Shown one piece after another: positions 29,427-58,207 of a stretch of DNA of 64,000 bases. The notes under the pieces were generated by a model, which searched no databases, was not told the DNA's origin, and saw only the letters and a list, made by a program, of their open reading frames with translations. Origin of the DNA: an uncultured Candidatus Saccharibacteria bacterium (GTDB lineage: Bacteria; Patescibacteriota; Minisyncoccia; Phycocordibacterales; UBA2100). Every line of letters begins with the position of its first letter. Position 1 is the stretch's first letter. The DNA lies in the NCBI GenBank assembly GCA_964437185.1, contig CAYTFU010000001.1, positions 101,022 through 165,021 of the forward strand, read 5' to 3'. The position numbers and the translations under genes were made by a program.

Positions 29427-29957
29427 CTAACGACTGATGAAAATTTGAGACCATGCGTGGTGGAACCTGCCTTTGTCATATTGACCACATCCGTTCAACA
29501 ATATGGCCAGCAAAAGAAAGGCTGCACCAACATATAGAAGTAAATAACTTGTGTTGAAAAACTTTCCTCCACCATTTATATTTCCAGCACTTTCCCATTT
29601 TGGGGGATAGACGGAATCGGCCTCACCATCAAAAATACCCGGAGTGAAGAGGCCAAGTGTTTTTTCCAATCGGACGGCAACTCGCTGTTGTGCCTGAAAC
29701 CCAGTACAGAGGTCATCGAGGTACTTAAATCGCAATACCGCTATTGCGACCACTACGCCTATTAGATAAAGCAATTTCTGTCCGGATGTAAGGACAATAT
29801 CACTCTGAATGAACCACCCTCCTGCGGTAAGCAGAAGTCCCAATGCCCATACGCCGACACTTTGGACGCGGTCGCGGATTGTCCGCATGACTGTGTACCG
29901 TTCCTCAAGTGCCGATAGAAGCACTGTTGTTTTTTGTTCTGTGTTTAGCGGATGCAT
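29427..29957 (-). CDS. small multi-TM protein, putative SLATT-like membrane effector partnered with the upstream NTase
   Basis: 176 aa. Amphipathic N-helix then 2-3 TM helices (VGVWALGLLLTAGGWFI; LLYLIGVVVAIAVLRF; YLLLYVGAAFLLLAILL). ATG 1 nt after the NTase stop. Low GC. Confidence 0.4.
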   Translation of the reverse strand: MHPLNTEQKTTVLLSALEERYTVMRTIRDRVQSVGVWALGLLLTAGGWFIQSDIVLTSGQKLLYLIGVVVAIAVLRFKYLDDLCTGFQAQQRVAVRLEKTLGLFTPGIFDGEADSVYPPKWESAGNINGGGKFFNTSYLLLYVGAAFLLLAILLNGCGQYDKGRFHHAWSQIFISR

Positions 29958-29958
29958 A

Positions 29959-36572: not shown

Positions 36573-37583
36573 TTAGAACGGATTGCGGATGCCGTTGCGA
36601 ATTTCGAAGTGCACGTGGGGGCCCGTCGACTTGCCCGTCGTTCCTACCGTACCAATCACCTGTCCGCGCGCCACCTGCTGGCCGACTGAGACCGAGACAG
36701 ACGCTGCGTGTGAGTAAAGCGTCTGACTACCATTTGAATGCTGAATCACGATATAGTCGCCGTACCCACCGTTCCATCCTGTGTGCTTTGCGATGATGAC
36801 CTCGCCATCCGCCGAAGCGAGGATTGGCGTACCCATAGGGGCCGCGAGATCTACTCCGTTGTACCCGTGAACTCCCTGTGTCCTCGTGTAGCGGGCGAGC
36901 GGTGAGGCATAGTATCCAATCTGTGCTGCTGTCCCGCCCCTTACCGCGATCCCGCCCGACTTTTTGGGCTTTGGAGCTGGGGCCGCGCGGATCTCGCCGT
37001 CCGGAATAATGATCTCCGATCCAACAGACAATTTTCCATCCTCTATTCCGTTGTAGCTCGCGATCTCCACCGCATCAGCAGAAAACTGCTTGGCTACAGA
37101 CGCCAACGTATCCCCTTTCTTGACCGCGTACTTAACGCCGGGAACGGGAAGGATGGTGAGCACCTGGCCAGCACGAAGCTTCGACGCGCTTGAGAGATCG
37201 TTTGCCCAAAGAATGGTGTTGGGGGTTACGTCAAACAATTTCGCGATCCCCGAGAGAGTATCCCCGGGCCGTACGGTATAGGTGCTAATGACATCCTTGG
37301 GCTTTTCGATATCGGCGATAGTTCCCGATGGCCCCTCCTCAGGCATGAGCGCGGTGTCATCGACAATCTTGATGTCACCCCCGCCCCTCCCGGCCATAGG
37401 GTCGGCGTTCATCGCCGGCTTTGGCAGCGGCATCGTTTGCACGCTGCTACCGGTAGATTCGAGCGGTATATCTTTTTCGGATGAACCCATGACCGATGCG
37501 ACGATGTCTCCAATGATGCTCGCACGGGACTCGACAGGTAGGAGGACCCCCACCACGAGCAAGAGTGATATGAGCGTCGCCAC
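36573..37583 (-). CDS. LysM-domain M23-family peptidoglycan endopeptidase
   Basis: Two LysM repeats (YTVRPGDTLSGIAKLF; YAVKKGDTLASVAKQF). M23 motifs HGYNGVDLAAPMGTPI and YSHAASVSVSVGQQV...HVHFEI. Confidence 0.85.
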   Translation of the reverse strand: MATLISLLLVVGVLLPVESRASIIGDIVASVMGSSEKDIPLESTGSSVQTMPLPKPAMNADPMAGRGGGDIKIVDDTALMPEEGPSGTIADIEKPKDVISTYTVRPGDTLSGIAKLFDVTPNTILWANDLSSASKLRAGQVLTILPVPGVKYAVKKGDTLASVAKQFSADAVEIASYNGIEDGKLSVGSEIIIPDGEIRAAPAPKPKKSGGIAVRGGTAAQIGYYASPLARYTRTQGVHGYNGVDLAAPMGTPILASADGEVIIAKHTGWNGGYGDYIVIQHSNGSQTLYSHAASVSVSVGQQVARGQVIGTVGTTGKSTGPHVHFEIRNGIRNPF

Positions 37584-41044: not shown

Positions 41045-42016
41045 ATGGTCATGCCGCACGACTTTCCGAATTTTAAAAACGAAGGCTTTGGGAATTTCAA
41101 ACCGCACCAGCCACCGCACGGCGTCGAATGGATGCGCGAACACCCCTACGCATTTCTGACATACGGTATCATCATTGCACTTCTCATCGGCGTCGTCTTT
41201 TTCATCCGACGCGACACCGCGCCACAGACGCACATCACCGCGTGGAGCGGCGTGCCGGCGACACCGGATGCGGGGGACTACAATCCGCCCGCGCCACCGC
41301 CGCCGCCACCCGCAACGACGACACCAACGATTCTTGAAGACCTCTCACGCAACGACAAACCATTCGATATTCCATACGCCGCGCCAGAAGCCCCGCTCGC
41401 CCCCTCAACAGGTTTCGATCTCAATGAATTCATACAGCGGCTGCGCCCGAATACAAGCAGCGCGGGGACGAGCACAGATTCCACGTCCGCAATCGACCTC
41501 ATAAAAGAAGCGTACTCATATATTCCGAGCGGCCTCATCAACACCGTATCGGCACCGACGATGACCACGCTACAGAAAGAGATTTTCAATTACGGCAACG
41601 AAATCGGCGCGCGCATTCTTTCGTTTGAAGATCGCTACCCCAATGCAATCGCGATCCTAAAAGATCAGGCGACGGACCGCGGCAACGCGCAAAAAGCAGC
41701 CGCCCTCACACTCTATGCAGAAGGTATGTCGGGCGTCGGCTATCAAATGCTCGCACTCAACGATGTGCCCAAAGAGGTAGCACCATCGAACCAGTCGCTC
41801 GCAAAGAGCTACATCAAAATCGGCGAAAACCTCGCGCTCGTCGCAAAGAGCATATCAGAAGCCGATTTTCTGCACGCAATCGAGGTGTACAACAAATCGG
41901 TTGAGGCACATACCAACGAGTTCGTGGCGATGGCGACGCTCTTTGGTGCTTACGACGTACATTTTGGCAACGCCGACAGCGGCCGCGTCTTCACCTTTAC
42001 GCAAGCAACTTTTTAG
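41045..42016 (+). CDS. membrane-anchored hypothetical protein with Pro-rich linker
   Basis: TM helix AFLTYGIIIALLIGVVFFI. PPAPPPPPPATT linker. Helical C-domain. Confidence 0.5.
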   Translation: MVMPHDFPNFKNEGFGNFKPHQPPHGVEWMREHPYAFLTYGIIIALLIGVVFFIRRDTAPQTHITAWSGVPATPDAGDYNPPAPPPPPPATTTPTILEDLSRNDKPFDIPYAAPEAPLAPSTGFDLNEFIQRLRPNTSSAGTSTDSTSAIDLIKEAYSYIPSGLINTVSAPTMTTLQKEIFNYGNEIGARILSFEDRYPNAIAILKDQATDRGNAQKAAALTLYAEGMSGVGYQMLALNDVPKEVAPSNQSLAKSYIKIGENLALVAKSISEADFLHAIEVYNKSVEAHTNEFVAMATLFGAYDVHFGNADSGRVFTFTQATF

Positions 42017-42125
42017 GGGCCGCTCACTAATGTCGTGACTATTATTAGTGTTACGGCCCCTTAGTCATCGTCCGACGGTAGCAACTTATTAATGGACGAG
42101 GATTTAATGCGCAGATTTCCCCTAA

Positions 42126-42953
42126 ATGCTCATTCTTAGAGCCTACTATCTGTCTGCGGGGGGTTATACTAACCACGTGGAAACGCGACGCTTACACACT
42201 AGCGGTTTTTCGGCTATTCGTGTCGCGGCGGTACTCTCAGTTGTGGTTCTCATGGGAGCGGTGGGGTGGCGAGGGTATGAATACTTGGGAGGCGCAACAC
42301 TTTCTGCGACGAACACAGGGGTCGCCACAAGTACGAGTAGCGCGACAGATAATCAAATCCCGATCACACAAACAGTCGGAAGCACGGCGATCGGAGCCGC
42401 AGTACTCGATGACTTGGTGTCGCGATACAACTCGCTGCAGGAGCGGGGGATATATACGCCCGAAATCGGACAAAAAGTCGCCGAAGAAATGGCAAGCACT
42501 CTCATACCTGAAGTGCCTTTTACTCGTCATACCGCAGCAGAGGTGGTTACCGACCCGACCATGTCTTCCGACCGCGCGCTTACGTATCGTCGTGATTTGC
42601 AAGAATCACTGAAGCCTTTGCTCGAAAATAAACAGGCGGGATTTGAAATTTTCGCCCTCTATACTGACACGCGCGATCCCAAATATTTGACGGAGCTACG
42701 GCAAGCTGCCGAAAATTACCGAAAGGCCGTTCACGCAAGCATGCAAGTGATCGTGCCGAAAGATGCCGTCGATGAGCACGTGGCGATTCTCAATGCGCTC
42801 GAACAGTTTGCGGCAACGCTCGACGCGCAGGCGATGAATGCGAATGACCCGCTCGCCTCCGTCGCGCTTCTGCGCACATACAATGAATCAGAGGCCGGCG
42901 TGCTCTCATCCTTCAACGCGCTCGCCACGTACTTCCGGGAAAAAACATCATGA
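42126..42953 (+). CDS. membrane-anchored hypothetical protein with architecture similar to the upstream gene
   Basis: TM helix AAVLSVVVLMGAVGW. Helical C-domain. Confidence 0.5.
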   Translation: MLILRAYYLSAGGYTNHVETRRLHTSGFSAIRVAAVLSVVVLMGAVGWRGYEYLGGATLSATNTGVATSTSSATDNQIPITQTVGSTAIGAAVLDDLVSRYNSLQERGIYTPEIGQKVAEEMASTLIPEVPFTRHTAAEVVTDPTMSSDRALTYRRDLQESLKPLLENKQAGFEIFALYTDTRDPKYLTELRQAAENYRKAVHASMQVIVPKDAVDEHVAILNALEQFAATLDAQAMNANDPLASVALLRTYNESEAGVLSSFNALATYFREKTS

Positions 42954-44644
42954 ACATTCGCACTTTCGTTCTTATATCCTTCTCACTCACCGGACTTGCT
43001 CCATCCCTTGCATTTGCCCAACCAGTAACAATAACTACGTCTGGACCCCAAATCTGCGAGGTAGTGAACGGCCAGCAGGTGTGCGCCCCCGTTCCACAAA
43101 ATCCACCTCTCCCCACCGATCCTCCGAGGCCACCGTTAACAACTACGCAGGGAATTTTCGGATGCAATCGAAACGGCGCGTACGCGATGGACGTCGGCTC
43201 GCTCTCGGCGCAGGGGGGAGTGTATGTGCCCGTCTCGGATGCGGCAGTCACGCTCAACACCGGCATCATCGTCTACAAAGAGTGCGTGTTACGCAATCAG
43301 ATTGTCCGCATGCGCGAGGCCGCGTCGGTCGGTCTTGCAAAGACCGCGAGCCGAGCAATAGAGACAGGTCGCGGTGGAGAGGCGCAGTACATGCGAAGTC
43401 CGGAGGAGCTTGTTACGGAAGCAAGCGATCCGGCGTTTATCAATTTCATGCAAACGGTCCCGCAAAATGCAAATGCTGCATTCCGCGAAGAGATTACGCG
43501 CGCGCTCGCAGTGACGTACGATCGCGAGACGCGAGGCAAAGAAACTGCGCTCAATTGTCCTTACGAGGGCGACGTGAGGCAAGCCATTACCAACCCTTAC
43601 ACGAATTTTAGCTGGGAGGGGTTTGGTCAGCTTTCGGATCCCGCCTGCAGCCCACTGACCGCATACTACATTCTTGACGATATGGCCGATGCGGCAACAG
43701 CACGCTGCATGGAGTACATGCAAGAGCAGTTGAGCTACGGCCGCGGATACTATCCAATGTTTGATGATCCGAACAACCCGTGCAGCGGACAAATCGTTAC
43801 TCCGGCGGTAAACGTGCAAGAAAATTTCCAAGCAATCCTCAACAGCCCGATCCATCAGCTTGAGAGCGCCAACGACATCGGCCAGATGATCGGCGCGCTC
43901 TACTCAGGCATGTCGACACAGATGATTTCTGATAATCGCGGACTTGCAGGCATGACGCAGGGGATAGGGGGCCAGCCATCATTTATGGATCAGCTCGTCT
44001 CCGAATCCTCGGCGGGCGTGCGCAACTCCACACTCAACACAGCTCTCACCATCCTCAATTCCGCAAAACAGGTCGAGACTGCCTACCTCAGTGCCGTCAC
44101 ATCGATCCTCAGCGTGCTCACGCAGACCAGCACCGCACTCCGCAACGCGGAGAATCAATGCTGGAATCTCATCATTCCAAAAGTGTGCTCTACCACGCTC
44201 AATGCACAGAATGAATGCACCGACGGCAGCGGCATCACCTACAAAGTCGCGACGTCGACGGCCGGCTACGCGCAGGGCGTCATCACAGCACGCGTGACAC
44301 CGCTCGTCGGCCCCACGACACAGAAAGTCACCACCTCTCAAAACGCGCTCCGCGCTATCGACCAGCTCCTCATTGCGGTCTCGGGCACCGCTTCTCTCGC
44401 CGCGCAACGACTCGCCATTCAACAACTCGACACCCTCATCGCGCAAAAGGTGCTCCACATACCGCCCGATGTCGATGGCCCTACAGGAGTCGTAAAGCAA
44501 CTCTCGGATGTACGCTCGCTCACCAACACCCTCATTCAAGACACGGTGCGCGCGTGGGCCGACGACCCATCACCGACGGTCGGCTGGTGCAACGTCAACA
44601 ATCCCGCAGTAATCGACGCGTGGAAATCACGCTGGAGAAAATAG
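42950..44644 (+). CDS. secreted Cys-containing surface protein, first gene of the T4SS-like block
   Basis: Signal peptide MNIRTFVLISFSLTGLAPSLAFAQP. ATGA overlap with the upstream gene. 564 aa. Confidence 0.5.
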   Translation: MNIRTFVLISFSLTGLAPSLAFAQPVTITTSGPQICEVVNGQQVCAPVPQNPPLPTDPPRPPLTTTQGIFGCNRNGAYAMDVGSLSAQGGVYVPVSDAAVTLNTGIIVYKECVLRNQIVRMREAASVGLAKTASRAIETGRGGEAQYMRSPEELVTEASDPAFINFMQTVPQNANAAFREEITRALAVTYDRETRGKETALNCPYEGDVRQAITNPYTNFSWEGFGQLSDPACSPLTAYYILDDMADAATARCMEYMQEQLSYGRGYYPMFDDPNNPCSGQIVTPAVNVQENFQAILNSPIHQLESANDIGQMIGALYSGMSTQMISDNRGLAGMTQGIGGQPSFMDQLVSESSAGVRNSTLNTALTILNSAKQVETAYLSAVTSILSVLTQTSTALRNAENQCWNLIIPKVCSTTLNAQNECTDGSGITYKVATSTAGYAQGVITARVTPLVGPTTQKVTTSQNALRAIDQLLIAVSGTASLAAQRLAIQQLDTLIAQKVLHIPPDVDGPTGVVKQLSDVRSLTNTLIQDTVRAWADDPSPTVGWCNVNNPAVIDAWKSRWRK

Positions 44645-44645
44645 T

Positions 44646-47600
44646 ATGGGAAACAAGAAAATCTTTGCCATTTTGCTCGGTTCCGTCGCGATTATATCGT
44701 TCGCTCCGGTTTCCTCAGTCCACCTCACACCAGGATTAAATACCGCCCTTGCTCAAACAACGCAATCTTGTAGCGGAATGGGAAGTCTCTCAAATCCGTC
44801 TGGCCGCATTACCGATCTCTCGACCCTCCCTCCGAACGTGGCACCGCAAAGGGCGGCATACTATTGTACTGGCACAGGTTTCGTGGGAACCCAGTACATC
44901 TTTTTCGACTCTAACGATAGGGAAATCGCCAACATAGCTAGTCCAGCCCCTGGAACCTTTGTGAGCACCGGGTTAGGCGGAGCGACTGGCGGAAGGGCTA
45001 AAACTCTGACCCTCGGCCCCCAGGACTGTAACTTCGAGAAAAGCTGGGCTCCATTCTTTAAGCCCGGCTGTTGGGGAAGGCTACTTGGAGCTCTGGTAGC
45101 CAGTATTTTTGTCTCGATAGGCGCATCACTCCTCGAATTGGCTGGTTGGTTTTTCAATCACGTGCTCCAAAATACGATCGTTGACTTCAAAGGGGCAATA
45201 TTCGGAAAAATCGAGGGTGCGATAAATATTGGCTGGACCGTATTTCGAGACCTCGCCAACATCACGATCATCGGCGTATTTACCTTCATCGCGCTCTCAA
45301 TCATCTTTGGCCTCAAATCCTACGGGCAAAAAAAACTTGTCGCCAACGTACTCATCGTCGCGGTACTCATCAATTTCAGCCTGCTCTTTACGAAGATAAT
45401 TATCGATGCGTCAAATTTTACGGCAACTCAATTTTACAGGGCAGCAATCGCCGACGCGGCTGCGAGTAAAGGAAGCGTCAGTGCGGCAACCTCAATATCG
45501 CCTACGGGAAGCACGTCTTCCGAATCATCGCCCACTCACACTACGAAGGGAATTTCTGGCTCATTCATGGAAACGATCGGCATTACCGGATTTGCGGATT
45601 CATACAAATACGTTCGCAGTATCCAGGAAGAGAAAGATAGCGGGATCGCGGGATTTCTTTTCGGGCTCATGTCGTTTATTTTTCTCCTGGGTGCCGCAAT
45701 TGTCCTTTTTTACGGCAGCTTCCTGCTCATTACTCGTGCCGTACTTCTCATATTTCTAATGCTGACGTCTGCGGCGGCGTTTGCGACCTACCTCATCCCA
45801 AACATTGAAAAGGCATCGTATGGGTGGAAAACGTGGATTGAATCTTTGGCGCAAGTTGCCGTGTTTGCCCCGCTACTCCTACTCTTCTTGTGGATCACCC
45901 TCACGATTGCAAAGGCCCTCAAACCAATTACCACCATGTCAACTACCACATCAACATTGGGCCAGGCAGGCAGTTCGCCCGGAGGCGCCGTCGCCGCCAT
46001 GTTTGGGTACTTCCTAATACTAGGAATGCTCTTCCTCTCATTCAAACTATCGAGCAAACTCTCGGGCAAGATCGCTGGTTTCAGTACCGCGGCGATGGTG
46101 CCGGGAGCGGCACTCGGATTGGGGCTCCGAGGGGTCGGCGCTCTTGGTACGGGGTTAGGATGGGGAGCCTCTGCACTGAGAGGAAAGATGCTGAACAATG
46201 GCTGGACAGACGCTGACGTTAACAAGGGAGTACGTGGATTTTTGATGAGGGGCGCAACTGTAGCCGCAAACAAGGCTGCGACGACCAATTTCAATGCATT
46301 GCAAAACAAGACTTTTGGTAAATTTACTAAGGCCCTCGGTATACCAAAAGCACTATCTGGCGGAATTGATACAAAAGGTGGGTTTGATGGCCTCATGACG
46401 CGAAGGGCGCAAGCGGGAGTCGCGAAGGGTAAAGCACTCGCGCCGACTGCAAGCTACCTTGCGGCCAAAGGCAAGGCAGCGGCTGAGACTGCCGCCCAAG
46501 CCGTGAGGGAGGAGATCAACGGACTGAAGGGCGAAAGGGCCGCACTCGACGGACAAAAGCAGACGCTGTCGGAAATCGCACGTGCTGAAATCGATCACGA
46601 GAAAAAGATTGGAATCTCCCGAGCGCAAGCAGCAGCCGAAGCGGGGCTATCAGGTGCACTTACCAACTCGAGTGCGCTTGCAAGGGTCGCGATGGAGCGT
46701 GCGGCGGCGAATCAACCCGATTCGCCAGAGGCGCGGGAGGGGATTGCGCTCGCACAAAGTGCGCAGGCCGCAACGGACAAAGCCAACATGCTCGCCGAAT
46801 CCGCAGAGTCTCAGCGGAAAATCGCCGAAGAGGCACACGCCAACGCAGAAACGCTCAAAGCGGACGCAGCGGCCAACCCCAGTGATCCCGAAAAAGCTGG
46901 GGCGGCAGATGGGGCAAGTAAGGCGATGCTCGAAGCCACAAACGAAGCGGAGCGGCTCGCAAAAGACGCGAGTGCCGCGCGCGTACAGGAAGAACAAGCG
47001 CATCAAGCAGCACTTAACAAGATGGTCGAAGCTACGAGCAAGCTCGAGAAAACGGCTGCTGCTCCCGCGCCTGCCGCCGCATCGGGTGGATCGGCGGCAC
47101 CAGGCGCCGCGAGTTCGGGTGGCAGCGGCTCGGCGGCGCAGGGAGGTGACCGCGCAACAGCCGAAAAAATCAACGAGGTTACAGAGGCGGTCAAAGAAGT
47201 GGGCAAGGAGCAGAGGCAACAGCACGAAGAGGGTCTCCGTGTGAGCATACCCAAAGCGCTCTCCGAGGCGGCGCAACAAATCCTCGACGCACAAGCAGAG
47301 CTTCGCCACGCACAGGAAGAAAAGCAGAACGTACATCTCACCGCCGAGGCGCGAGCAAAAAGGATGATTGAAACAAGCCCAGTCATAAAAGACATCACCG
47401 ACCAAATATCTGCACGAGACAAAAAACTTGTGGAGATCAGAATTAAAAACGGCGTGAAGGGGGAAGACGTGTACTCTGGACGAGGGGATGACAAGATGAT
47501 CAGAGACATCGCAGAAAAAGTCTCCAAAGAAACAATCGGAAGAACACAGATAACAGTGGCAAAATCGTTCATCAGGGATCCGCGAGCCCGCACCAAGGTC

Positions 47601-47741
47601 GAAGGAATGTTACGCGAGCGCCAAAAGACAGACCGAATCAAAGACCTCGCCGCAGCGTTCACCGAAACCGGGGCGATCGAAACGCCGCCTGCACCCGCGC
47701 CTGCGCCGTCTCCGACACCTCCCACCGGAGGAACCGTATAA
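44646..47741 (+). CDS. VirB6/TrbL-like polytopic membrane protein with about 550-aa Ala/Glu/Lys-rich coiled-coil C-terminal extension
   Basis: Signal peptide, at least 6 TM helices between residues about 130-480, then a long low-complexity helical tail ending in a Pro-rich segment. Position is 5' of the PrgI/VirB4 genes. Confidence 0.55.
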   Translation: MGNKKIFAILLGSVAIISFAPVSSVHLTPGLNTALAQTTQSCSGMGSLSNPSGRITDLSTLPPNVAPQRAAYYCTGTGFVGTQYIFFDSNDREIANIASPAPGTFVSTGLGGATGGRAKTLTLGPQDCNFEKSWAPFFKPGCWGRLLGALVASIFVSIGASLLELAGWFFNHVLQNTIVDFKGAIFGKIEGAINIGWTVFRDLANITIIGVFTFIALSIIFGLKSYGQKKLVANVLIVAVLINFSLLFTKIIIDASNFTATQFYRAAIADAAASKGSVSAATSISPTGSTSSESSPTHTTKGISGSFMETIGITGFADSYKYVRSIQEEKDSGIAGFLFGLMSFIFLLGAAIVLFYGSFLLITRAVLLIFLMLTSAAAFATYLIPNIEKASYGWKTWIESLAQVAVFAPLLLLFLWITLTIAKALKPITTMSTTTSTLGQAGSSPGGAVAAMFGYFLILGMLFLSFKLSSKLSGKIAGFSTAAMVPGAALGLGLRGVGALGTGLGWGASALRGKMLNNGWTDADVNKGVRGFLMRGATVAANKAATTNFNALQNKTFGKFTKALGIPKALSGGIDTKGGFDGLMTRRAQAGVAKGKALAPTASYLAAKGKAAAETAAQAVREEINGLKGERAALDGQKQTLSEIARAEIDHEKKIGISRAQAAAEAGLSGALTNSSALARVAMERAAANQPDSPEAREGIALAQSAQAATDKANMLAESAESQRKIAEEAHANAETLKADAAANPSDPEKAGAADGASKAMLEATNEAERLAKDASAARVQEEQAHQAALNKMVEATSKLEKTAAAPAPAAASGGSAAPGAASSGGSGSAAQGGDRATAEKINEVTEAVKEVGKEQRQQHEEGLRVSIPKALSEAAQQILDAQAELRHAQEEKQNVHLTAEARAKRMIETSPVIKDITDQISARDKKLVEIRIKNGVKGEDVYSGRGDDKMIRDIAEKVSKETIGRTQITVAKSFIRDPRARTKVEGMLRERQKTDRIKDLAAAFTETGAIETPPAPAPAPSPTPPTGGTV

Positions 47742-47744
47742 TCT

Positions 47745-48284
47745 ATGGACCAAGAGATTGATTTGCGAGAAGCATTGAAAGAGCGTTTTTTTGAACTCCC
47801 CAAAGTCGTACAAGACGCCATCACCTCGACTGACATACAAAAACTCCTTCAAGGTCTTGCGGAGACAAGTAAGCTACATGTCGATCAGTGGCAAATACTT
47901 GAAAATGAAGTGATTATGGCCCTCTATGGAGTCACTGAGGTCACAGATTTACAAACCAATATCCAGAAACATGTCAATGTTCCCGCCGAAATGGCCGCAC
48001 TTCTTGCGACGAACATCTCAAAAATGGTATTTGAGCCAATTCGCGGAGAGATTGAGAGCTCTCTGCGTCACCCCGATGCGCAGGCCGCTGTGGCAAGCGG
48101 CGTCGACACGGTTCGATCCCAGATACTCGCAAACAATGCCCAGCCCAGCCCCGCGACGCCTCCACCTCCCTCGCCGACGCAGAAAGTGGCGCGCGCGCCG
48201 ATTTCTGCGGCATACCACGCTGGCGAACCGTCGAGCGCGCGCGCCTCTGTCGACGACGATCCGTACCGAGAGTCACCGACCTGA
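47745..48284 (+). CDS. hypothetical T4SS-associated protein
   Basis: 179 aa. Tight spacing within the cluster. Pro-rich C-terminus. Confidence 0.4.
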   Translation: MDQEIDLREALKERFFELPKVVQDAITSTDIQKLLQGLAETSKLHVDQWQILENEVIMALYGVTEVTDLQTNIQKHVNVPAEMAALLATNISKMVFEPIRGEIESSLRHPDAQAAVASGVDTVRSQILANNAQPSPATPPPPSPTQKVARAPISAAYHAGEPSSARASVDDDPYRESPT

Positions 48285-48349
48285 GGCGAGTTATCAAGAA
48301 GTCTTTTTGAATTGCGATTCGACGCTTTCTGCGCTGATATAATGCGTGC

Positions 48350-48865
48350 ATGCAGTTTCAAGTGCCTCAATTCATCGAGGTAGAGGATAAGATCTTTGGT
48401 CCGCTGACCTTCAAGCAATTTATCTACGTGGGCGGCGGAGCAGGAGCGTGCTACATAATCTGGCGCATGCTGCCCATCTATGCGAGCGCACCCCTTATTG
48501 CCGCAGTAGCGGGCCTTGCTGTGAGTCTTGCGTTTTTTCAATTCAACGGCCGGCCATTTATCACGAGCCTTGAAAATGGCTTCTACTTCCTCATCCGAGG
48601 CAAGCTGTACCTCTGGAGCAACGCCCCAAAGAAAAGCACCATCGCGATAAAGGGAAAACCGCTGCGCGGCGACCTTTCCAACATATACATACCGAAGCTC
48701 TCCGAGAGCAAACTTCACGAACTCTCGTGGAGCCTCGATATCAAAGAAAGGATAGCGCAGGGAATAGCAAGTGACGTTGAGCGTGAGGGAGAACATCCGG
48801 GCGCACCCTCACTCATGAGAAGTCCCCAGCAAGTGCGCGACTCGATATTGAGCCAATCTGCGTAA
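48350..48865 (+). CDS. PrgI/VirB3-like small membrane protein
   Basis: MQFQVPQFIEVEDKIFGPLTFKQFIYVGGGAGACYIIW followed by two TM helices. Confidence 0.55.
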   Translation: MQFQVPQFIEVEDKIFGPLTFKQFIYVGGGAGACYIIWRMLPIYASAPLIAAVAGLAVSLAFFQFNGRPFITSLENGFYFLIRGKLYLWSNAPKKSTIAIKGKPLRGDLSNIYIPKLSESKLHELSWSLDIKERIAQGIASDVEREGEHPGAPSLMRSPQQVRDSILSQSA

Positions 48866-48868
48866 TAT

Positions 48869-49534
48869 ATGCCTACCAAATCCGAAAACCCTCGCGCGAG
48901 CGCTCGATCAACACAGGAATTTTTGCCCGTTTCCGAGGTGCGTGATGGCGTCGTGGTACTAAAAGACGGAAGTCTCCGAGCAATACTCCTCGCATCATCG
49001 ATCAACTTCGCGCTCAAATCCGAAGACGAGCAGACTGCCTTCATTATCCAGTTTCAAAACTTCCTCAATTCCCTCGACTTTTCTGTGCAGATTTTCGTGC
49101 AATCGCGCACGCTCGACATCCGCCCCTATATTGCCACTCTTGAGGTGGCATACAAAGAGCAGCTCGACGATCTCATGCGCATCCAGATTCGGGAGTACAT
49201 TCAATTCATCAAAAGCTTTACCGAAGCAGCGAATATCATGTCCAAAAACTTTTTCGTCTCCGTACCCTATAGCCCGGCAATTCAACTGAGCAAGAGCGGC
49301 ATCGCGTCGATGCTCCCGTTTGGAAAATCTAAAACGAGCTCTGAGGAGTCGAACAAAACGTTTGAAGAAAGCGTCTCTCAGCTGGAGCAGCGGGTCTCTA
49401 TTGTGCAGCAAGGCCTCGTCCGCACGGGCGTGCGCACCGTACAGCTCGGCACCGAAGAGGCGATCGAGCTTCTCTACAAAATGTTTAATCCCGGCGAAGA
49501 AGGCAAGCCGATGCCGCTGAACAGTCAACAGTAA
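48869..49534 (+). CDS. VirB4-family N-terminal domain protein; possibly a detached part of VirB4
   Basis: FLPVSEVRDGVVVLKDGSLRAILLASSINFALKSEDEQ...FQNFLNSLDFSVQIF resembles the VirB4/TrbE N-terminus. 3-nt gap after the PrgI-like gene. This assignment rests on motif memory rather than a database search. Confidence 0.5.
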   Translation: MPTKSENPRASARSTQEFLPVSEVRDGVVVLKDGSLRAILLASSINFALKSEDEQTAFIIQFQNFLNSLDFSVQIFVQSRTLDIRPYIATLEVAYKEQLDDLMRIQIREYIQFIKSFTEAANIMSKNFFVSVPYSPAIQLSKSGIASMLPFGKSKTSSEESNKTFEESVSQLEQRVSIVQQGLVRTGVRTVQLGTEEAIELLYKMFNPGEEGKPMPLNSQQ

Positions 49535-49609
49535 ATAGTACGTAGAATCTAAAAAATACCGCTACAATCCACCTAACGACTACTGACTATTTTCTACTGA
49601 CTACCTACT

Positions 49610-51538
49610 ATGGCTCTTCTCGACTTTCTCACAAAAAAGCAGGCGGACTCTCCAGACGTTTTGCCCATACTTCCGGAAGAAATCTATAAGATGGGCATCC
49701 TCGACCTGCAAGATGTGATCGCGCCGCACGCGCTCCACATCTCGCCGCGCGAACTCGACCTCGGCGAGAAGATCGCGCGCACATTCTTTGTCATCTCGTA
49801 TCCGCGCTTTCTCACGACGGGCTGGTTTGCTCCGATCATCAACATGGACAAAGTCCTCGACATTTCGATCTTCATACACCCGCTCGATACCAATGAGATG
49901 CTGCGTAAATTTCAGAAGAAGGTTGCCGAGGTGCAAAGCCAGATCTCGACGCGCGAGGCGAAGGGGATGGTCCGCGACCCGATGCTCGACACCGCGTACT
50001 CCGATCTCGAACAACTCCGCGATTCCTTGCAGCAGGCGCAGGAGCGCATGTTTGACGTGGGGCTCTACATTACGATTTATGGAAACACGCGAGAGGAGAT
50101 CGACAAGGTGGAAACTGATGTGCGCTCGGTGCTCGAATCTCGACTCGTCTACATTCGCCCCGCGCTCTTTCAGCAAGAGCAGGGATTCCGCTCCGTGCTC
50201 CCGATCGCGACCGACGAGCTCGACGTCCATACGAAGCTCAACTCCGCACCTCTCTCGTCCATATTTCCGTTCATTTCGTTCGACCTGACGTCGGATAGGG
50301 GAATACTCTACGGAATCAACCGGCACAATTCGTCGCTCGTACTCTTCGATCGGTTCTCTCTCGAAAACTACAACTCCGTCACCTTTGCAAAATCGGGAGC
50401 CGGAAAATCGTACACAACGAAGCTCGAGATTTTGAGAAGTCTTATGTTCGACACCGAAGTTATCGTCATCGACCCCGAGCGAGAGTATGAATACTTGGCA
50501 GTCACGGTGGGTGGGCGATACTTCAATATCTCGCTCTCGTCGGAACACCACATCAACCCGTTTGATCTCCCGATTCCACGCGGCGACGAAAGCCCTTCGG
50601 ATGTCTTGCGCAACAACATCATCACGCTCGTGGGGCTTTTTCGCATCATGCTCGGCGGCTTGACGCCGGAAGAAGACGCGATCATCGATAGAGCGATTAC
50701 CGAGACGTACGCGCTCAAAGACATCACCGCGGACGCAAACTTCGCCCAAATCGAACCGCCACTGCTTTCAGACTTCGAGCTCGTGCTCTCCGGCATGGAA
50801 GGCTCAGAATCGCTCGTCTCGCGGCTATCGAAATATACGAAAGGCACGTGGTCGGGCTTTATGAACCGCCCAACCAACGTAGACATGAACAAGAAATTGA
50901 CGGTCTTTTCGGTGCGCGACATGGAGGATGATTTGAAACCGGTCGCTATGTACATCATCACGCACCACATCTGGAACACGGTGCGCAAGGAGCTCCGCAA
51001 GCGTCTCCTCATCATCGACGAAGCGTGGTGGATGATGAAATCGCAGGATACCGCCTCGTTCCTCTTCGGAATCGCGAAACGCGGCCGCAAATACTACCTC
51101 GGCCTTTCAACGATCACCCAAGACGTCAACGACTTCCTCACATCGCCCTACGGGACGGCCATGATCACCAACTCTTCGATTCAATTATTACTACGACAGT
51201 CGCCGACCTCCGTCGATCTCGTACAACAAACCTTCAAGCTCTCCGACGAGGAAAAATATCTGCTCCTTGAATCAGACGTGGGGGAGGGGATCTTCTTTGC
51301 GGGCCTCAAGCACGTGGCGATGAAAGTAATCGCCTCATACACCGAAGATCAGATCATTACCTCGGATCCGTCTCAGATACTCGCGATCAAAAAGGCCAAA
51401 CAAGAGCTCGAAGCGGCGAATGATGCGGGGCAGACGGTGAGCACGCCCGACACGACGTCAACCCACGCCGGACAAATTAAAGAGGCGCCAGTAAATCTCG
51501 GCGCTGCGCCGGCGAGCGCGCCAATAACCCCGCAATGA
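49610..51538 (+). CDS. virB4: VirB4/TrbE/CagE-family T4SS ATPase
   Basis: Walker A KSGAGKSYTTK. Walker B LLIIDEAWWMM. The DEAW motif is diagnostic. Also DVIAP...FFVISYP. Confidence 0.85.
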   Translation: MALLDFLTKKQADSPDVLPILPEEIYKMGILDLQDVIAPHALHISPRELDLGEKIARTFFVISYPRFLTTGWFAPIINMDKVLDISIFIHPLDTNEMLRKFQKKVAEVQSQISTREAKGMVRDPMLDTAYSDLEQLRDSLQQAQERMFDVGLYITIYGNTREEIDKVETDVRSVLESRLVYIRPALFQQEQGFRSVLPIATDELDVHTKLNSAPLSSIFPFISFDLTSDRGILYGINRHNSSLVLFDRFSLENYNSVTFAKSGAGKSYTTKLEILRSLMFDTEVIVIDPEREYEYLAVTVGGRYFNISLSSEHHINPFDLPIPRGDESPSDVLRNNIITLVGLFRIMLGGLTPEEDAIIDRAITETYALKDITADANFAQIEPPLLSDFELVLSGMEGSESLVSRLSKYTKGTWSGFMNRPTNVDMNKKLTVFSVRDMEDDLKPVAMYIITHHIWNTVRKELRKRLLIIDEAWWMMKSQDTASFLFGIAKRGRKYYLGLSTITQDVNDFLTSPYGTAMITNSSIQLLLRQSPTSVDLVQQTFKLSDEEKYLLLESDVGEGIFFAGLKHVAMKVIASYTEDQIITSDPSQILAIKKAKQELEAANDAGQTVSTPDTTSTHAGQIKEAPVNLGAAPASAPITPQ

Positions 51539-52596
51539 AAACACGATCATTGACCACATCGCGGAGACATCTCGTGTTCACGGCGCTTATACTTTGTGCG
51601 GCGCTGCTCGCGACATCACGCGCTCACGCACAGAGCGGCCTTCTCGGATTTGAGCGTTCGCTCGTCATACAGATGAACCCGCAGTATCCGAGGCCGGGAG
51701 ACATCGTATCGCTCAAGGTAACGAGCCCCATTCAAGATATTTCGGAGGGAGAAATAGCATGGACTACAAACGGCAAGCCACTCTCATCGGGGACGGGGGA
51801 GCTCACTGCGCAAATCGAACTCGGTCCACTCGGGAGCAGGACCGTGATCGGCGTGAACGTCATCACAGACAACGGAGAGGCATTCGGAGAAATGACCATC
51901 ATCCCCACAGAGATCGATCTCCTCGTCGACACCGACGCGTACGTGCCGCCTTTCTACCGCGGGAGAGCCCTCCCATCGGTTGGAACGACCGTGTACCTTG
52001 AAGCGAAACCTCGTTTCCTTCTGCCGAGCGGCGCGAGCGTGCCCACGAGCGACATCTTTTTCACATGGAAGAAAAACAACGACACGTTGACTGCTCTGAG
52101 CGGTAAAGGAAAATCCGTCGCGCGCATACCCTTACAAAATCTTTTCGGCACGTATGTGGTGTCGGTCGAAGCATACACGAGCGACCGCAGTCTTTCGGGT
52201 CGCGCTACCCACACACTCACTCACACGCCGCCAGCCGTTTTACTCTACCAAGACCACCCCCTCTACGGCATCATGTACCACCGCGCCCTCACAAGCCCAG
52301 CGACATTTTCTGAAAACGAAATCACGTTTGCACTCGTGCCATTTTTTGCACAGGCAACAAGCCCCAACGACCCTGGGCTCACGTTTGCATGGAGCGTAAA
52401 TGGACAAAGTATCCCCGCAGACGCAAACAATCCGAGCCGAATCACCATCAATGCCGATAATTCATCGGGCGAAGCACTCTTGAAGCTCGGCCTGTCGCAC
52501 AAAACCAACTATTTCTTTTCTTCTGACACGACGTGGAATATGACGCTCTCTTCAAGAGAACCTTCATCGGCGACGTTTAGCCCTTTCACTGAGTAG
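51535..52596 (+). CDS. secreted protein with Ig-like beta repeats (T4SS-associated)
   Basis: Signal peptide ALILCAALLATSRAHA. ATGA overlap with virB4. Confidence 0.5.
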   Translation: MKTRSLTTSRRHLVFTALILCAALLATSRAHAQSGLLGFERSLVIQMNPQYPRPGDIVSLKVTSPIQDISEGEIAWTTNGKPLSSGTGELTAQIELGPLGSRTVIGVNVITDNGEAFGEMTIIPTEIDLLVDTDAYVPPFYRGRALPSVGTTVYLEAKPRFLLPSGASVPTSDIFFTWKKNNDTLTALSGKGKSVARIPLQNLFGTYVVSVEAYTSDRSLSGRATHTLTHTPPAVLLYQDHPLYGIMYHRALTSPATFSENEITFALVPFFAQATSPNDPGLTFAWSVNGQSIPADANNPSRITINADNSSGEALLKLGLSHKTNYFFSSDTTWNMTLSSREPSSATFSPFTE

Positions 52597-52597
52597 T

Positions 52598-53956
52598 ATG
52601 ACGAGAACCATCATCGAATATACACTCGCGGCAGTTGTTGTCGTCATCCTCGGCGCTTTAGTAGGGTGGTATTTCTTCCTCGAAAAAAAATCCGATGGAG
52701 CAGTGCCCCCGAGCGCCGCACGGGAATACGAAGTGCCGATCGCAGAACAGTCCGATCATCCTGCAAGCGCCCCGAGCCCGTCGTTCCTTTCGAAACTGCG
52801 CGAGAGCATCTTCGGGTCGGGGGATGGGGTATCTGAGACACCGAGCGCGGCGTTCGGCGAAAGCACTGTTACAACGCCCGCAGGGCCCGCAGCCATCGTC
52901 GAGCAGGTGGTAAAGCGGCCTCCGCAGCTCTCACAGGTACACGCAAAACCAATCGCGGGCATGTCTTTTATAGCAACGCCCGAAGGCGAGCGCCTCCGAT
53001 TTGTCGAGCGCGCAACGGGGTACGTCTACGATGCTAACCTAGAGACTGGGGCCGTGGCACGCATCAGCAACACACTGTCTCCAAAAGTGTACGAGGTGAT
53101 TATTTCAAAAAGCGGCCGTGTCATCGAGCGTACCCTCGACGCTGATGGCCGCATATCGACCACGGCACATCTTTTCGCAGCATCAAGCACCGCAAGTGCA
53201 ACGACCTCCGCCGCAACCTCAACGCGTTTACTTCCAAAAGACATCGAGCGCATCGCCGTAGACCCCAAAACCGAAAATCTTTTTTATCTCATCCGCAGCG
53301 CATCGGGCGTCGAGGGCCATCAATCAGAATGGGGCGGAACAAAAGCGACGCGAGTGTTTTCTTCCGGCGTACTCCATTGGATCCCCCTGTGGCTTTCCGA
53401 CGGTCGCGTCATTCTCACGCAGAATGCCGCAAGCGGCGTCCCGGGATTCGCATATGAAATCGTGAGAGGGGAGACGCGTCCGCTCCTTCGGAACATCGCG
53501 GGACTCACGCTCCTGCCGCGCGCGTCGGGTTCGGTGATTTTTGGCGAGGCGACGAGCGGCTCGTTCAATCTTTTCGCTCAGGCAGGCCCTACGAGCACTG
53601 CGATGCGACTCTCAATCAAAACCGCGGCGGACAAATGCGCTTGGACACCGGACCTATTAACACAGAGCACGAGTACCGGAAAGATTGTCACGAAGGTAAC
53701 GCGCACCTACACGGCGCTCTGCGGAGTCCCGGAAGAATCGCCTGCGCCTGGTTTTCTCGAAAATTGGTACCGCGGCGTCACGCACACATCGGACACCTTG
53801 TGGTGGGTGGATGCAGGCTCCGGCAACGCAACACTCGTATATAATCCAAACGTATCGGTGGATGTGGATCGCCCACAATTTAATGGCACAGGAGGATACC
53901 TCGCATTCATAAACAAAACTGATTTGTCTCTGTGGATATTCCGCGTAGAAAAATAA
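52598..53956 (+). CDS. membrane-anchored extracytoplasmic protein (T4SS-associated)
   Basis: N-terminal TM helix AAVVVVILGALVGWYFFL. 452 aa. Confidence 0.5.
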   Translation: MTRTIIEYTLAAVVVVILGALVGWYFFLEKKSDGAVPPSAAREYEVPIAEQSDHPASAPSPSFLSKLRESIFGSGDGVSETPSAAFGESTVTTPAGPAAIVEQVVKRPPQLSQVHAKPIAGMSFIATPEGERLRFVERATGYVYDANLETGAVARISNTLSPKVYEVIISKSGRVIERTLDADGRISTTAHLFAASSTASATTSAATSTRLLPKDIERIAVDPKTENLFYLIRSASGVEGHQSEWGGTKATRVFSSGVLHWIPLWLSDGRVILTQNAASGVPGFAYEIVRGETRPLLRNIAGLTLLPRASGSVIFGEATSGSFNLFAQAGPTSTAMRLSIKTAADKCAWTPDLLTQSTSTGKIVTKVTRTYTALCGVPEESPAPGFLENWYRGVTHTSDTLWWVDAGSGNATLVYNPNVSVDVDRPQFNGTGGYLAFINKTDLSLWIFRVEK

Positions 53957-53958
53957 CT

Positions 53959-54399
53959 ATGATAAAAAAGCTCTTTCATGCCATTCGAACACGCGCTCGG
54001 AATGTTCTTTTCCAGGGAGCTGCGTTTGCGCCGCTTGCGAAGTATTCCGGGACCCCTCTCGAGGGCATATATTCCAGTACCGCGGTGTGGGATCTCGGCG
54101 ACTTTTTGGGTGGATTTTTCAAATTCGCGATTGCGGTCGGTGCGATCGCCGCCATACTTCGCATCGCATACGCGGGATACCTCTATATGGGCTCAGACAT
54201 TACAAACAACAAGGGGAGGGCCAAAACCATTCTTACTGATGTCGTAATTGGCCTGCTTCTCCTCCTTTCGATCTGGATCATCCTGTATCAGATCAATCCG
54301 AATATTCTGAAAATCGATCTCCTGAAAACCCTAAACGAATCGGAACAAAAACTGCAGCAGCAGCGCGAAGCCAACAGGGCTGGATCTGCTGGGGAATGA
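53959..54399 (+). CDS. VirB2/TrbC-like pilin candidate (two-TM small protein)
   Basis: ATG 2 nt after the upstream stop. Two hydrophobic helices (FAIAVGAIAAILRIAYAGYLYM; VVIGLLLLLSIWIILYQI). Confidence 0.4.
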   Translation: MIKKLFHAIRTRARNVLFQGAAFAPLAKYSGTPLEGIYSSTAVWDLGDFLGGFFKFAIAVGAIAAILRIAYAGYLYMGSDITNNKGRAKTILTDVVIGLLLLLSIWIILYQINPNILKIDLLKTLNESEQKLQQQREANRAGSAGE

Positions 54400-55093: not shown

Positions 55094-55816
55094 TCAACCA
55101 TTCCACTTTCTACCCGCGGCAAATTCCTGCGCAATCATGAAGAGGTTACTCGTTATGAGGTAGAGGGGAACCGCCGCAATGAGCCAGTACCCAACGACTC
55201 CCATAATCACGGGGAGTACGTACCGAGCCTGCAAATCAAAACTGCGCGCCATGTCGTTTGAAAATGTGGCCTCCACAGCGGTCTGCGACCCGCGCGGCCC
55301 CATGGAGAGCCGGCTGTAGATCAGCTGTGTTACTCCTGCGAATACTGCGAGTACAATACTGTGACTTTGCATGCCGATGAGGCCGAAGAATTCCATGTTG
55401 ACCATTTCTGGAATCGGCACAAACGAGTACAATATCGTCGCGTCAACTTCTGGCAATCCGCCACCGCTGAATACCCAGTAGAGCCCGATGAGGACGGGGA
55501 ACTGCGCGAGGAGGAGTCCGAGGCCCGCAAGCGGATGCACTCCCCGCTCACGGTAGAGCGCGAATATGGCCTTCGCCTGCTCTTGTTTGTCATCTTTGTA
55601 CTTTTCCTTAAGAACCTCCACCTCGGGGGCAATCTTCTTCATCGCAATCTGCGTCTCTACAGCACGGCGAGAGAGGGGATAGATAACGACGCGCGCGACA
55701 ATCGTGAGCAGAATGACCGCCACACCCATGTCGTGGGTGGGGATGATGTCGACCAAAAAAACGAGCCCATTGTAGAGCGGGGCGTAAATCGCAATATGAA
55801 AGAATTCTGAAATCAT
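55094..55816 (-). CDS. yidC: membrane protein insertase YidC (short Gram-positive-type form)
   Basis: LLTIVARVVIYPLS...KYKDDKQEQAKAIFALYRERGVHP. 5 TM helices. Confidence 0.9.
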   Translation of the reverse strand: MISEFFHIAIYAPLYNGLVFLVDIIPTHDMGVAVILLTIVARVVIYPLSRRAVETQIAMKKIAPEVEVLKEKYKDDKQEQAKAIFALYRERGVHPLAGLGLLLAQFPVLIGLYWVFSGGGLPEVDATILYSFVPIPEMVNMEFFGLIGMQSHSIVLAVFAGVTQLIYSRLSMGPRGSQTAVEATFSNDMARSFDLQARYVLPVIMGVVGYWLIAAVPLYLITSNLFMIAQEFAAGRKWNG

Positions 55817-55835
55817 TGGAGGATTGTATCTCGTA

Positions 55836-56177
55836 TCAGGATATCAAGCGAGCCCGCTTCAAGAGCCGCTCGACGTCGCGCCCGAGTTCAACATTCGCCG
55901 CATGCGCGGCAGCCGCTTTTGCACGAAACACGAGAGCGAGAGGTTCTGACATGGCGCGCATGTGCGACTGGAGCGTTTCGCGGCACTGCCGCTCAATCCT
56001 ATTTCGGTCGACCGCTCGTGCCGACACTTTTTTGGACACTACGCTCGCCATCTTCGGGCCATCACTCTGCGGCAGAGGAGCGATGGAGAGCGAAAAAAAA
56101 TCCCCATGCACGCGCTCGTGCTTTGATTTCTCTAGCCGCACAAAATCGGCACGAGAGAGCCGAAATTTCTTGGGCAT
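55836..56177 (-). CDS. rnpA: ribonuclease P protein component
   Basis: MPKKFRLSRADF...ASVVSKKVSARAVDRNRIERQ. Located between rpmH and yidC. The track ORF extends to 56270. Confidence 0.8.
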   Translation of the reverse strand: MPKKFRLSRADFVRLEKSKHERVHGDFFSLSIAPLPQSDGPKMASVVSKKVSARAVDRNRIERQCRETLQSHMRAMSEPLALVFRAKAAAAHAANVELGRDVERLLKRARLIS

Positions 56178-56219
56178 AGCGCTGGGTTGGCGTTGGGCTG
56201 GAAAAAATTTTGCAAAGCG

Positions 56220-56354
56220 ACTACACAGAAAGCTTCGCGCGACCCTTTCGGCGACGGCGGCGCAACACATTGAGGCCGGAAGTGCTCGCGCTGCGCGCTC
56301 GGTACCCGTGCGTCTTCGCTCGCTTACGCTTCTTTGGCTGCCATGTTCGTTTCA
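56220..56354 (-). CDS. rpmH: 50S ribosomal protein L34
   Basis: Manual translation [44 protein letters not shown], 44 aa. Below the ORF-track length cutoff. Coordinates +/-1. Confidence 0.85.
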
Positions 56355-56645
56355 TGCGGACACTATACGCATTTTTTTCATTCTCACAACCCCCGGGAAC
56401 ATTGGCCCGTGGCCTTCTGAGAACCTCGCGCAGCGATTATTCAATGGACCGCAACATCGCGCAGTGGTGATAGGGGATAAACTTGGCACGAACGACGAGT
56501 TCGAAGACGCGCCACAGGCCAATGTTCCTCGTCCCCACACTATCCACACCTTATGCCCACCCCTTCGCGATGCCACACTCCTTTCATTGCGGAGCGCCGC
56601 GCGTATAATGTCCAAGCTCTCGCATTCTTCATGACCACCTACACA
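56355..56645. promoter_or_regulatory. rpmH-dnaA divergent intergenic region with DnaA-box-like sites and the dnaA promoter
   Basis: cactatccacacc matches TATCCACA. ggggataaac. TATAAT at about 56606. Confidence 0.5.
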
Positions 56646-57995: not shown

Positions 57996-58207
57996 CTATG
58001 TGGATAGCACCTGCTAATGTAATGAATAAACCTATACTATCCACACTCAACATTCCAAAATTCCACTAACTACCAAGATATCAAATCCAAACCTTTAACT
58101 TCTCAACACCCTCCACTCCCAAAAAATCAATAATCTAAAACATATTTCCAACTTCTCCACACCATCCACACCACTAATAGTAGTAATAGTATTAATAAAG
58201 TATCTCT
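57996..58207. other. candidate oriC: DnaA boxes plus an AT-rich unwinding element between dnaA and dnaN
   Basis: tatgtggata (reverse TATCCACA), ctatccacac and atccacacc boxes. AT-rich tract aatagtagtaatagtattaataaag immediately before dnaN. Confidence 0.6.

Follow-up and report, generated by a model that had tools for sequence, protein, structure and literature searches.

Which machine is encoded by a block of type IV secretion system (T4SS)-like genes that lies beside the replication origin of a candidate-phyla-radiation bacterium, and is it used for conjugation? The block occupies positions 41045-54399 on the + strand of a 64-kb stretch of contig CAYTFU010000001.1, and this whole stretch is called the window in the following. 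Very probably, the block is a vertically inherited chromosomal T4SS of the Patescibacteria clade, derived from the MPF_FATA type, for which we propose a function as a pilus or conduit for host contact and not in conjugation. The system has already been described in 2023-2025, including its closeness to dnaA and ksgA, and the block is an instance of this known system. Most ultra-small members of the candidate phyla radiation carry the cluster beside the replication origin. These bacteria have few conserved envelope machines, of which it is one, and it is essential in the one species tested. The present locus, which has eleven genes and only one pilin, is a clean and compact example. The added value of the analysis lies in fold-level descriptions of Paceibacteria accessory genes that are unnamed in current family libraries, in the conserved DPYRE tail of one of these proteins, and in a conservation gradient, resolved by part, that runs from the motor in the cytoplasm out to the surface proteins.

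Recognisable parts of the secretion machine

The list of open reading frames (ORFs) and their translations gives eleven co-directional + strand ORFs in the block, numbered here g1 to g11. Judged from sequence, the recognisable parts are a split VirB4 (g7 and g8), a PrgI/VirB3 protein (g6), an extended VirB6 (g4) and one VirB2-like pilin (g11).

g1, 41045..42016, + strand: 323-aa single-pass membrane protein (hydropathy; no Pfam or NCBIfam match)
g2, 42126..42953, + strand: 275-aa single-pass membrane protein with its transmembrane (TM) segment at aa 28-46 (hydropathy; no family)
g3, 42950..44644, + strand: 564-aa secreted, Cys-containing, all-alpha elongated protein (models and profiles)
g4, 44646..47741, + strand: 1031-aa extended VirB6/TrbL-like channel protein (hydropathy, composition, ortholog matches)
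g5, 47745..48284, + strand: 179-aa cytoplasmic protein (no TM segment; no Pfam or NCBIfam match)
g6, 48350..48865, + strand: PrgI/VirB3-like small membrane protein (Pfam PrgI, PF12666)
g7, 48869..49534, + strand: 221-aa TrsD-like protein, detached N-terminal domain of VirB4 (NCBIfam)
g8, 49610..51538, + strand: 642-aa VirB4 ATPase, middle and C-terminal ATPase domains (NCBIfam, Pfam, PDB, motifs)
g9, 51535..52596, + strand: 353-aa secreted protein with three immunoglobulin (Ig)-like repeats (signal peptide, ortholog consensus)
g10, 52598..53956, + strand: 452-aa membrane-tethered beta-propeller (AlphaFold2 model, Foldseek, profile)
g11, 53959..54399 from ATG, + strand: 146-aa VirB2-like T4SS pilin, or 155 aa from a GTG at 53932 (Pfam via orthologs)

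Neighbouring genes are mostly separated by gaps of 1-3 nt or overlap by 4 nt; longer spacers lie between g1 and g2 (109 nt), g5 and g6 (65 nt) and g7 and g8 (75 nt). Over g5-g11, which is as much of the block as they cover, identical contigs with public gene calls agree with this gene model. Promoter and terminator counts in the block do not exceed the level of shuffled sequence, so that operon boundaries could not be drawn from them. A search for extra copies of g3, g4, g5, g9, g10 and g11 found none in the window.

The assignment of the motor is carried by g8. This protein matches the NCBIfam model 'VirB4-like conjugal transfer ATPase, CD1110 family' with 362 bits (5.8e-108), above the curated cutoff of 325 bits, and the match spans positions 185-732 of the 752-position model. 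The NCBIfam models for Mycoplasma integrative conjugative element VirB4, F-type TraC and VirB4_CagE gave lower scores. A Walker A motif, GAGKS, is located at aa 263 (nt 50396-50410) and the Walker B motif DEAW at aa 470 (nt 51017-51028). The Pfam match is P-loop_TraG (1.1e-22), which we take to be the Bacteroides TraG family, a VirB4 homolog. Against the PDB, the best match was Thermoanaerobacter VirB4 (4ag5, 1e-40), followed by R388 TrwK (3e-6), and there was no VirD4, FtsK or HerA chain among the matches at ≤1e-3. A match to DUF87, the HerA central domain, is weak, with 28 bits compared to 362 bits on the VirB4 model. An FtsK, HerA or VirD4 (TraG) ATPase was rejected because the CD1110 VirB4 model is far ahead and no FtsK or VirD4 chain was among the PDB matches.

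In NCBIfam, g7 matches VirB4_plasma (2.9e-9, model positions 93-233), the CD1110 family (1.7e-6, positions 11-112), TrsD/TraD NF041427 (4.6e-6) and VirB4_CagE (9.4e-6, positions 2-180). Public gene calls label it PF26593 TraC-like; alone against the PDB it gave no match. Because the g8 match begins at model position 185 and g7 covers approximately positions 1-180, g7 is the missing N-terminal domain, and VirB4 is divided into two ORFs, the TrsD-like g7 and the ATPase g8. This division is common among relatives: in a comparison of the best 80 of 589 matching species-representative loci, chosen by VirB4 similarity, g7 is a separate ORF in 78. It is directly preceded by g6 in 77 of the 80 loci. 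The g6 protein matches Pfam PrgI PF12666 over aa 9-83 with 34.6 bits (2.9e-8; gathering score 27) and is presumed to be the membrane anchor for VirB4.

By hydropathy, the long g4 protein combines a signal peptide with a Cys-containing external domain of ~115 aa and ~7 TM helices at aa 142-466, and its hydrophilic tail of ~510-560 aa is rich in Ala, Glu and Lys. W197, R201, N243-F244-S245, N257 and R364 are invariant among its orthologs. The window copy does not match Pfam, while 11 of 59 orthologs match TrbL/VirB6 PF04610 (best 4e-7). The ortholog profile matches TrwI, the VirB6 of R388, in the PDB (7o3v_F, E=0.0095) over the C-terminal TM region. On this transitive evidence we accept g4 as an extended VirB6. 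The pilin assignment is similar in kind. Two hydrophobic helices in g11, at aa 49-67 and 91-109, enclose a basic loop, which is typical of VirB2. The window copy matches T4SS_pilin PF18895 with 23.9 bits (4.5e-5), just under the gathering score of 26.6, and 45 of 51 orthologs match this family (best 2.4e-10) and 9 of 51 match TrbC/VirB2. A match to the NCBIfam Mbov_0395 pilin-like model had an E-value of 0.016. Public gene calls use the 146-aa start, and in distant loci the g11 homolog sits between g9 and g10.

An earlier, sequence-only reading of this DNA had described ten tightly packed or overlapping genes on one strand. Strand and packing are as it said; the count is eleven. It had recognised a VirB4 ATPase by the DEAW motif, and the grouping of g8 with VirB4 and not with FtsK/TraG, by both NCBIfam and PDB matches, bears this out. 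It had treated the 642-aa protein as a single VirB4 and had thus not noted the separate N-terminal ORF. The PrgI/VirB3-like protein that it placed ahead of the ATPase scores above the Pfam threshold, and its polytopic VirB6/TrbL-like giant and its pilin-like ORF with two TM segments agree with the anatomy and ortholog matches of g4 and g11.

Relatives, inheritance and known systems

Thousands of proteins from metagenome-assembled genomes of Kaiserbacteria, Paceibacterota and Parcubacteria share 85-93% identity with g8, and in the best 80 loci the identity is 74-91%. The gene order uvrD-ksgA-[g1..g11]-jag-yidC-dnaA-dnaN is kept in these loci wherever the contig extends far enough, and g4-g11 are detectable in 50-80 of the 80. 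The genes around virB4 thus travel with it and are not unrelated housekeeping genes. The titles of the 80 loci are inconsistent, naming Kaiser-, Nomura-, Campbell-, Taylor-, Adler- and Wolfebacteria, Paceibacterota and some 'Saccharibacteria'. Many loci of Paceibacteria type (75-91% VirB4 identity; L001, L006, L007 and others) are titled 'uncultured Candidatus Saccharibacteria bacterium'. Probably, these Saccharibacteria titles result from bulk mislabelling, and taxonomy based on titles is unreliable. The sequence-only reading had likened the block to the minimal T4SS-like machines of the candidate phyla radiation, Saccharibacteria included. The first part holds, and the block can be specified as a chromosomal, origin-proximal machine of the VirB4-based Gram-positive (PrgI, CD1110) type; the organism is a patescibacterium of Paceibacteria/Kaiserbacteria type (VirB4 85-93%) and not a Saccharibacterium.

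Median identities in the fetched loci are given below. The choice of loci by VirB4 similarity inflates the VirB4 value relative to those of the other genes, which is a first point against our interpretation.

VirB4 g8: 77.7%
TrsD-like g7: 62.6%
DnaA: 56%
PrgI g6: 49%
YidC: 43%
DnaN: 40%
Pilin g11: 36%
g9: 29%
VirB6 g4: 28%
g10: 27%

Could the block be the remnant or a working module of an MPF_FATA integrative conjugative element, with relaxase and coupling protein encoded elsewhere? All recognisable parts are homologous to Gram-positive conjugation proteins. Relaxases are absent from ~97% of Patescibacteria genomes and present in ~3%, and homologs of the type IV coupling protein (T4CP) VirD4 occur in most of these genomes, usually far from virB4 (PMC12102498). 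Against such an element, the insertion point and the gene order are fixed across the genomes of related species that were fetched. VirB4 also co-diverges with DnaA: in 40 of the 41 loci that contain both, VirB4 identity is the higher (medians 78% vs 56%; Spearman 0.67). Because VirB4 identity tracks and exceeds DnaA identity, the comparison indicates vertical descent with very strong constraint (purifying selection) on the motor. A search of 72,556 plasmids found VirB4 matches of at most 36% identity, the top ones among the matches listed being from Actinobacteria and Firmicutes. A composition scan of the window showed the same GC content in block and flanks, with no anomaly. Pfam scans of the window ORFs of ≥150 aa judged likely genes found no relaxase, T4CP or VirB11 domain in these 64 kb, as the sequence-only reading had stated for relaxase, VirD4 and VirB11. 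Other large window ORFs taken as genes are housekeeping genes by the same scans. The sole integrase-family gene in the window is a lone Xer-like tyrosine recombinase ~25 kb from the block, so that no integrase is adjacent. A mobile element was thus rejected because of the fixed order, the co-divergence with DnaA, the matching base composition and the lack of relaxase, T4CP and VirB11 genes in the window, and we regard conjugation as extremely improbable.

The preferred reading, a vertically inherited Patescibacteria-clade T4SS, is in line with published systems. Quinonero-Coronel et al. (2025) found that the Patescibacteria VirB4 clade is monophyletic and nested in MPF_FATA, that the commonest partner of VirB4 is TrsD, that PrgI/VirB3, VirB6 and VirB2-like pilins are encoded in the vicinity, and that VirB8 is largely undetectable (PMC12102498). 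In Paceibacteria, the neighbours of virB4 are dnaA, dnaN, ksgA, rnpA and rpmH (PMC12102498). The block shares the TrsD-like protein, VirB4, PrgI/VirB3, VirB6 and the VirB2-like pilin, these same neighbours, and the lack of relaxase and T4CP beside virB4; compared by parts and identity, nothing essential differs.

Southlakia epibionticum ML1 has a homologous cluster, SEML1_0004-0019, that is essential to its epibiotic growth (Wang et al. 2023, PMC10633639). The cluster runs VirB6, NTF2, 0011, PrgI, 0009, VirB4, peptidase, lysozyme/CHAP, Ig-like and beta-sandwich protein, and there are six pilins (PMC10633639). Like the block, it adjoins dnaA/dnaN, is transcribed toward the origin and has no linked relaxase or T4CP. 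Both have a VirB6 gene and, further along, PrgI, a small ORF (the unannotated 0009, in the TrsD position) and VirB4, then exported Ig-like or beta-sandwich proteins after VirB4, and both have pilins in PF18895. Only Southlakia has six divergent pilins, a second membrane protein of ~1000 aa, an NTF2-like (VirB8-like) gene, and lysozyme/CHAP and DD-peptidase genes within the cluster, whereas the block has one pilin, no recognised NTF2 protein and no hydrolase of its own, and carries a beta-propeller protein and g1-g3 instead. Essentiality was demonstrated in Southlakia only.

Compared with the MPF_FATA systems of monoderms (pGO1 TrsC/TrsD/TrsE, pCF10 PrgH/PrgI/PrgJ, C. difficile CTn CD1110), the block likewise has a CD1110-family VirB4 (above cutoff), a PrgI-type VirB3 and no VirB7/VirB9/VirB10 outer-membrane core, and it shares with pGO1 (TrsD/TrsE) a separate ORF for the TrsD-like N-terminal domain. 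Affinity to this monoderm type is proposed because the best NCBIfam model is CD1110, the best PDB match is a Firmicute VirB4, and the top plasmid matches listed belong to Actinobacteria and Firmicutes. In contrast to these systems, the block is on the chromosome and inherited vertically, lacks a linked relaxase, T4CP or adhesin, encodes a VirB4 that is ≤36% identical to any plasmid VirB4, and has a VirB2-like pilin, which is absent from Gram-positive systems (PMC12857230). There is a proposal of a monoderm T4SS that forms a pilus (PMC12857230). With the diderm VirB-type core of R388 (TrwK, TrwI, TrwM, TrwL) the block shares homologs of VirB2, VirB3, VirB4 and VirB6. It differs in belonging to a monoderm organism, in a VirB6 longer by ~500 cytoplasmic residues, and in that no VirB5, VirB7-VirB11 or VirD4 was recognised, VirB9 and VirB10 having been reported missing from the window before.

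Accessory proteins and possible functions

Six proteins of the block (g1, g2, g3, g5, g9 and g10) showed nothing above threshold in Pfam and NCBIfam, and 119 orthologs of these proteins, with g3 left out, gave only sporadic Ig, PKD and PD40 matches when scanned singly. This agrees with the sequence-only reading, which had found most accessory components without a recognisable family and secreted or anchored proteins after the ATPase; of these, g9 is secreted and g10 is membrane-tethered. The g9 protein immediately follows virB4 in 78 of 80 loci. Its repeats each carry a W..NG motif (aa ~76, ~178 and ~286), seen in the ortholog consensus. The g9 profile gave weak Ig-like matches (Hoc, 0.0019), and orthologs sporadically match Ig_3, PKD and BiPBP_C. 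The g10 protein, found in 70 of 80 loci, consists of an N-terminal TM helix, a disordered linker of ~75 aa and a propeller at aa ~110-450, modelled by AlphaFold2 with a mean pLDDT of 80.6 and a pTM of 0.73. Foldseek against the PDB returned generic propellers (WD40, TolB; E~2e-7), and the profile matched TolB with 0.0016. We do not claim g10 as TolB, since Foldseek yields generic propellers only.

Upstream, g1 has a TM segment at aa 36-54 followed by a Pro-rich linker (hydropathy), and its extracytoplasmic domain is probably helical. It was found by tblastn in 18 of 80 loci, closer relatives only, invariably at the first position of the block. Matches to g2 occur in 28 of 80 loci, and one locus (L025) has a 299-aa ORF with a single TM segment at the same position. 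That g1 and g2 are paralogs was rejected (BLASTP E=0.33). The g3 profile had no match in the PDB. In one public gene call, g3 begins at an internal Met (485 aa) and so loses the signal peptide; full-length homologs support 564 aa. It is a matter of speculation that g3 is a pilus-tip protein or a VirB5-like analogue. All three are detectable in closer loci only, and in one distant locus proteins of the same architecture fill their place. The cytoplasmic g5 has a conserved N-terminal domain of ~100 aa, which looks helical by eye without formal prediction, a highly variable Pro-rich linker and a C-terminal DPYRE motif. In 42 of 49 orthologs, 3-5 residues separate DPYR[ED] from the C-terminus, and the g5 profile gave only noise against the PDB. 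The DPYRE tail resembles a short linear docking motif, and g5 may be a docking adaptor.

By part, conservation falls from the cytoplasmic motor (78 and 63%) through the membrane parts (49, 36 and 28%) to the external proteins (27-29%), a gradient that is consistent with a host-facing surface. The fast-evolving external parts would also fit an effector-translocating T4SS that injects the host bacterium and works with a distant VirD4-like coupling protein or with none, as do Bordetella Ptl and Brucella VirB. Such a role has been speculated for Saccharibacteria (PMC11665869, PMC10633639), and protein-secreting systems without T4CP exist (PMC12102498). However, family scans recognised no candidate effector or chaperone in or beside the block, and the T4SS genes of Southlakia are essential while its distant t4cp homolog is not (PMC12102498). 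We consider effector injection possible, though doubtful.

The lack of an export-type coupling protein linked to the block might instead point to a machine for the uptake of DNA or nucleotides, like Helicobacter ComB or archaeal Ced, by which host DNA would feed an organism unable to make nucleotides. The literature names import among the candidate roles (PMC11665869), and g8 has partial matches to CedB and CedD. These are weak, with 33 bits against a cutoff of 700 and 11.5 bits against 600, and no CedA-like, ComB7-10-like or other Ced- or ComB-specific part was recognised. ComEC-dependent uptake is dispensable to Southlakia, whereas the T4SS is essential (PMC12857230), so that any import would take another route than the known one. 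Dedicated DNA or nucleotide uptake seems very unlikely to us.

In VirB-type systems, VirB4 is the pilin dislocase, and in the R388 structure VirB6 is reportedly the platform on which the pilus is assembled. Because of these established roles, we propose that the Patescibacteria-clade T4SS of the block works in a similar way. The TrsD-like g7 and VirB4 g8 would form the cytoplasmic motor, held at the membrane by the PrgI/VirB3 protein g6. This motor would pull the VirB2-like pilin g11 out of the membrane and onto the extended VirB6 platform g4, where assembly would give a pilus or conduit across the cell wall. The lineage-specific external proteins, helical g3, Ig-repeat g9 and propeller g10 together with g1 and g2, might form the scaffold or the tip of the structure and make contact with the host cell. 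Such a machine would serve host attachment and the exchange of macromolecules, by effector export or nutrient import, and not plasmid conjugation. We infer pilus formation, the accessory roles, and substrate and direction by analogy to these better-known systems.

Several points, besides the selection of loci mentioned above, weigh against this interpretation. The assignments of VirB6 and of the pilin depend in part on orthologs; in the window, both copies are at or below Pfam thresholds. No VirB8-like (NTF2-fold) or VirB1-like component was recognised in the block by Pfam and NCBIfam, including 119 orthologs. A distant VirD4-like coupling protein elsewhere in the genome may permit substrate secretion, even DNA transfer. 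A T4SS-attributable pilus has not been seen in Patescibacteria (PMC12206443), and in the literature to mid-2026 the function is described as 'completely unknown' (PMC11665869). The roles speculated in reviews are effector delivery, uptake and a pilus conduit (PMC11665869, PMC12857230), and we found no functional assignment for Patescibacteria T4SS in the 2025-2026 literature, in which a cryo-ET study of Mycosynbacter names T4SS among its references only.

Taken jointly, the parts allow a further idea, which we hold to be unlikely. The Paceibacteria system might have swapped the wall-spanning VirB8, VirB1 and adhesins of monoderm systems for a conserved external module of its own, made up of Ig-repeat g9, tethered propeller g10 and helical g3 as tip, set around a single VirB2-like pilin, with g5 as a cytoplasmic adaptor docking via DPYRE. 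The whole would then be an essential housekeeping import conduit for host nucleotides, lipids or other macromolecules. If true, this would explain why the motor is more conserved than DnaA.

Surroundings of the block

Upstream of the block lie uvrD/pcrA and ksgA. Downstream, jag, yidC, rnpA and rpmH on the - strand converge on it, followed by dnaA and dnaN on the + strand and a class A penicillin-binding protein gene. Cumulative GC skew is lowest at 56-58 kb. DnaA-box-like 9-mers (≤1 mismatch) are clustered at 57999-58161 in the spacer between dnaA and dnaN, with another at 56540, just upstream of dnaA; the whole window contains 17 such matches compared to 8.5 expected. These features suggest that oriC probably lies in the dnaA-dnaN region, and the block is indeed placed beside the chromosomal origin among core genes, as had been proposed. 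Encoded by the lagging strand, it is read in the direction of the origin and meets replication head-on. The Southlakia cluster, which flanks dnaA/dnaN on the opposite side, also points to the origin; with two lineages only, this could be coincidence.

Two gene calls near the origin deserve correction. A 272-aa ORF at 55816-56634 (+) is probably spurious, the real genes being rnpA at 55836-56177 (-) and rpmH (L34, 44 aa) at 56221-56355 (-). The dnaA start at 56553 may be too far upstream; in one public call the protein has 454 aa.

The ORF at 36573-37583 (-), four genes upstream of the block, encodes an M23 peptidase that carries two LysM domains. It may substitute for the missing VirB1-type wall hydrolase. 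VirB1-like matches containing M23/LysM have been noted near virB4 in Paceibacteria (PMC12102498).

Further upstream, the ORF at 29959-30891 (-) encodes a CBASS-type oligonucleotide cyclase (CD-NTase), which matches the PADLOC model 'Cyclase' PDLC00801 with 1.2e-89; in Pfam it has weak matches to NTP_transf_2 and SMODS only. On the same strand it is followed by a 176-aa ORF (29427-29957, -) with no family match, which could be the effector. By its genes, the pair at 29427-30891 resembles a system for anti-phage signalling, here in a genome from the candidate phyla radiation.

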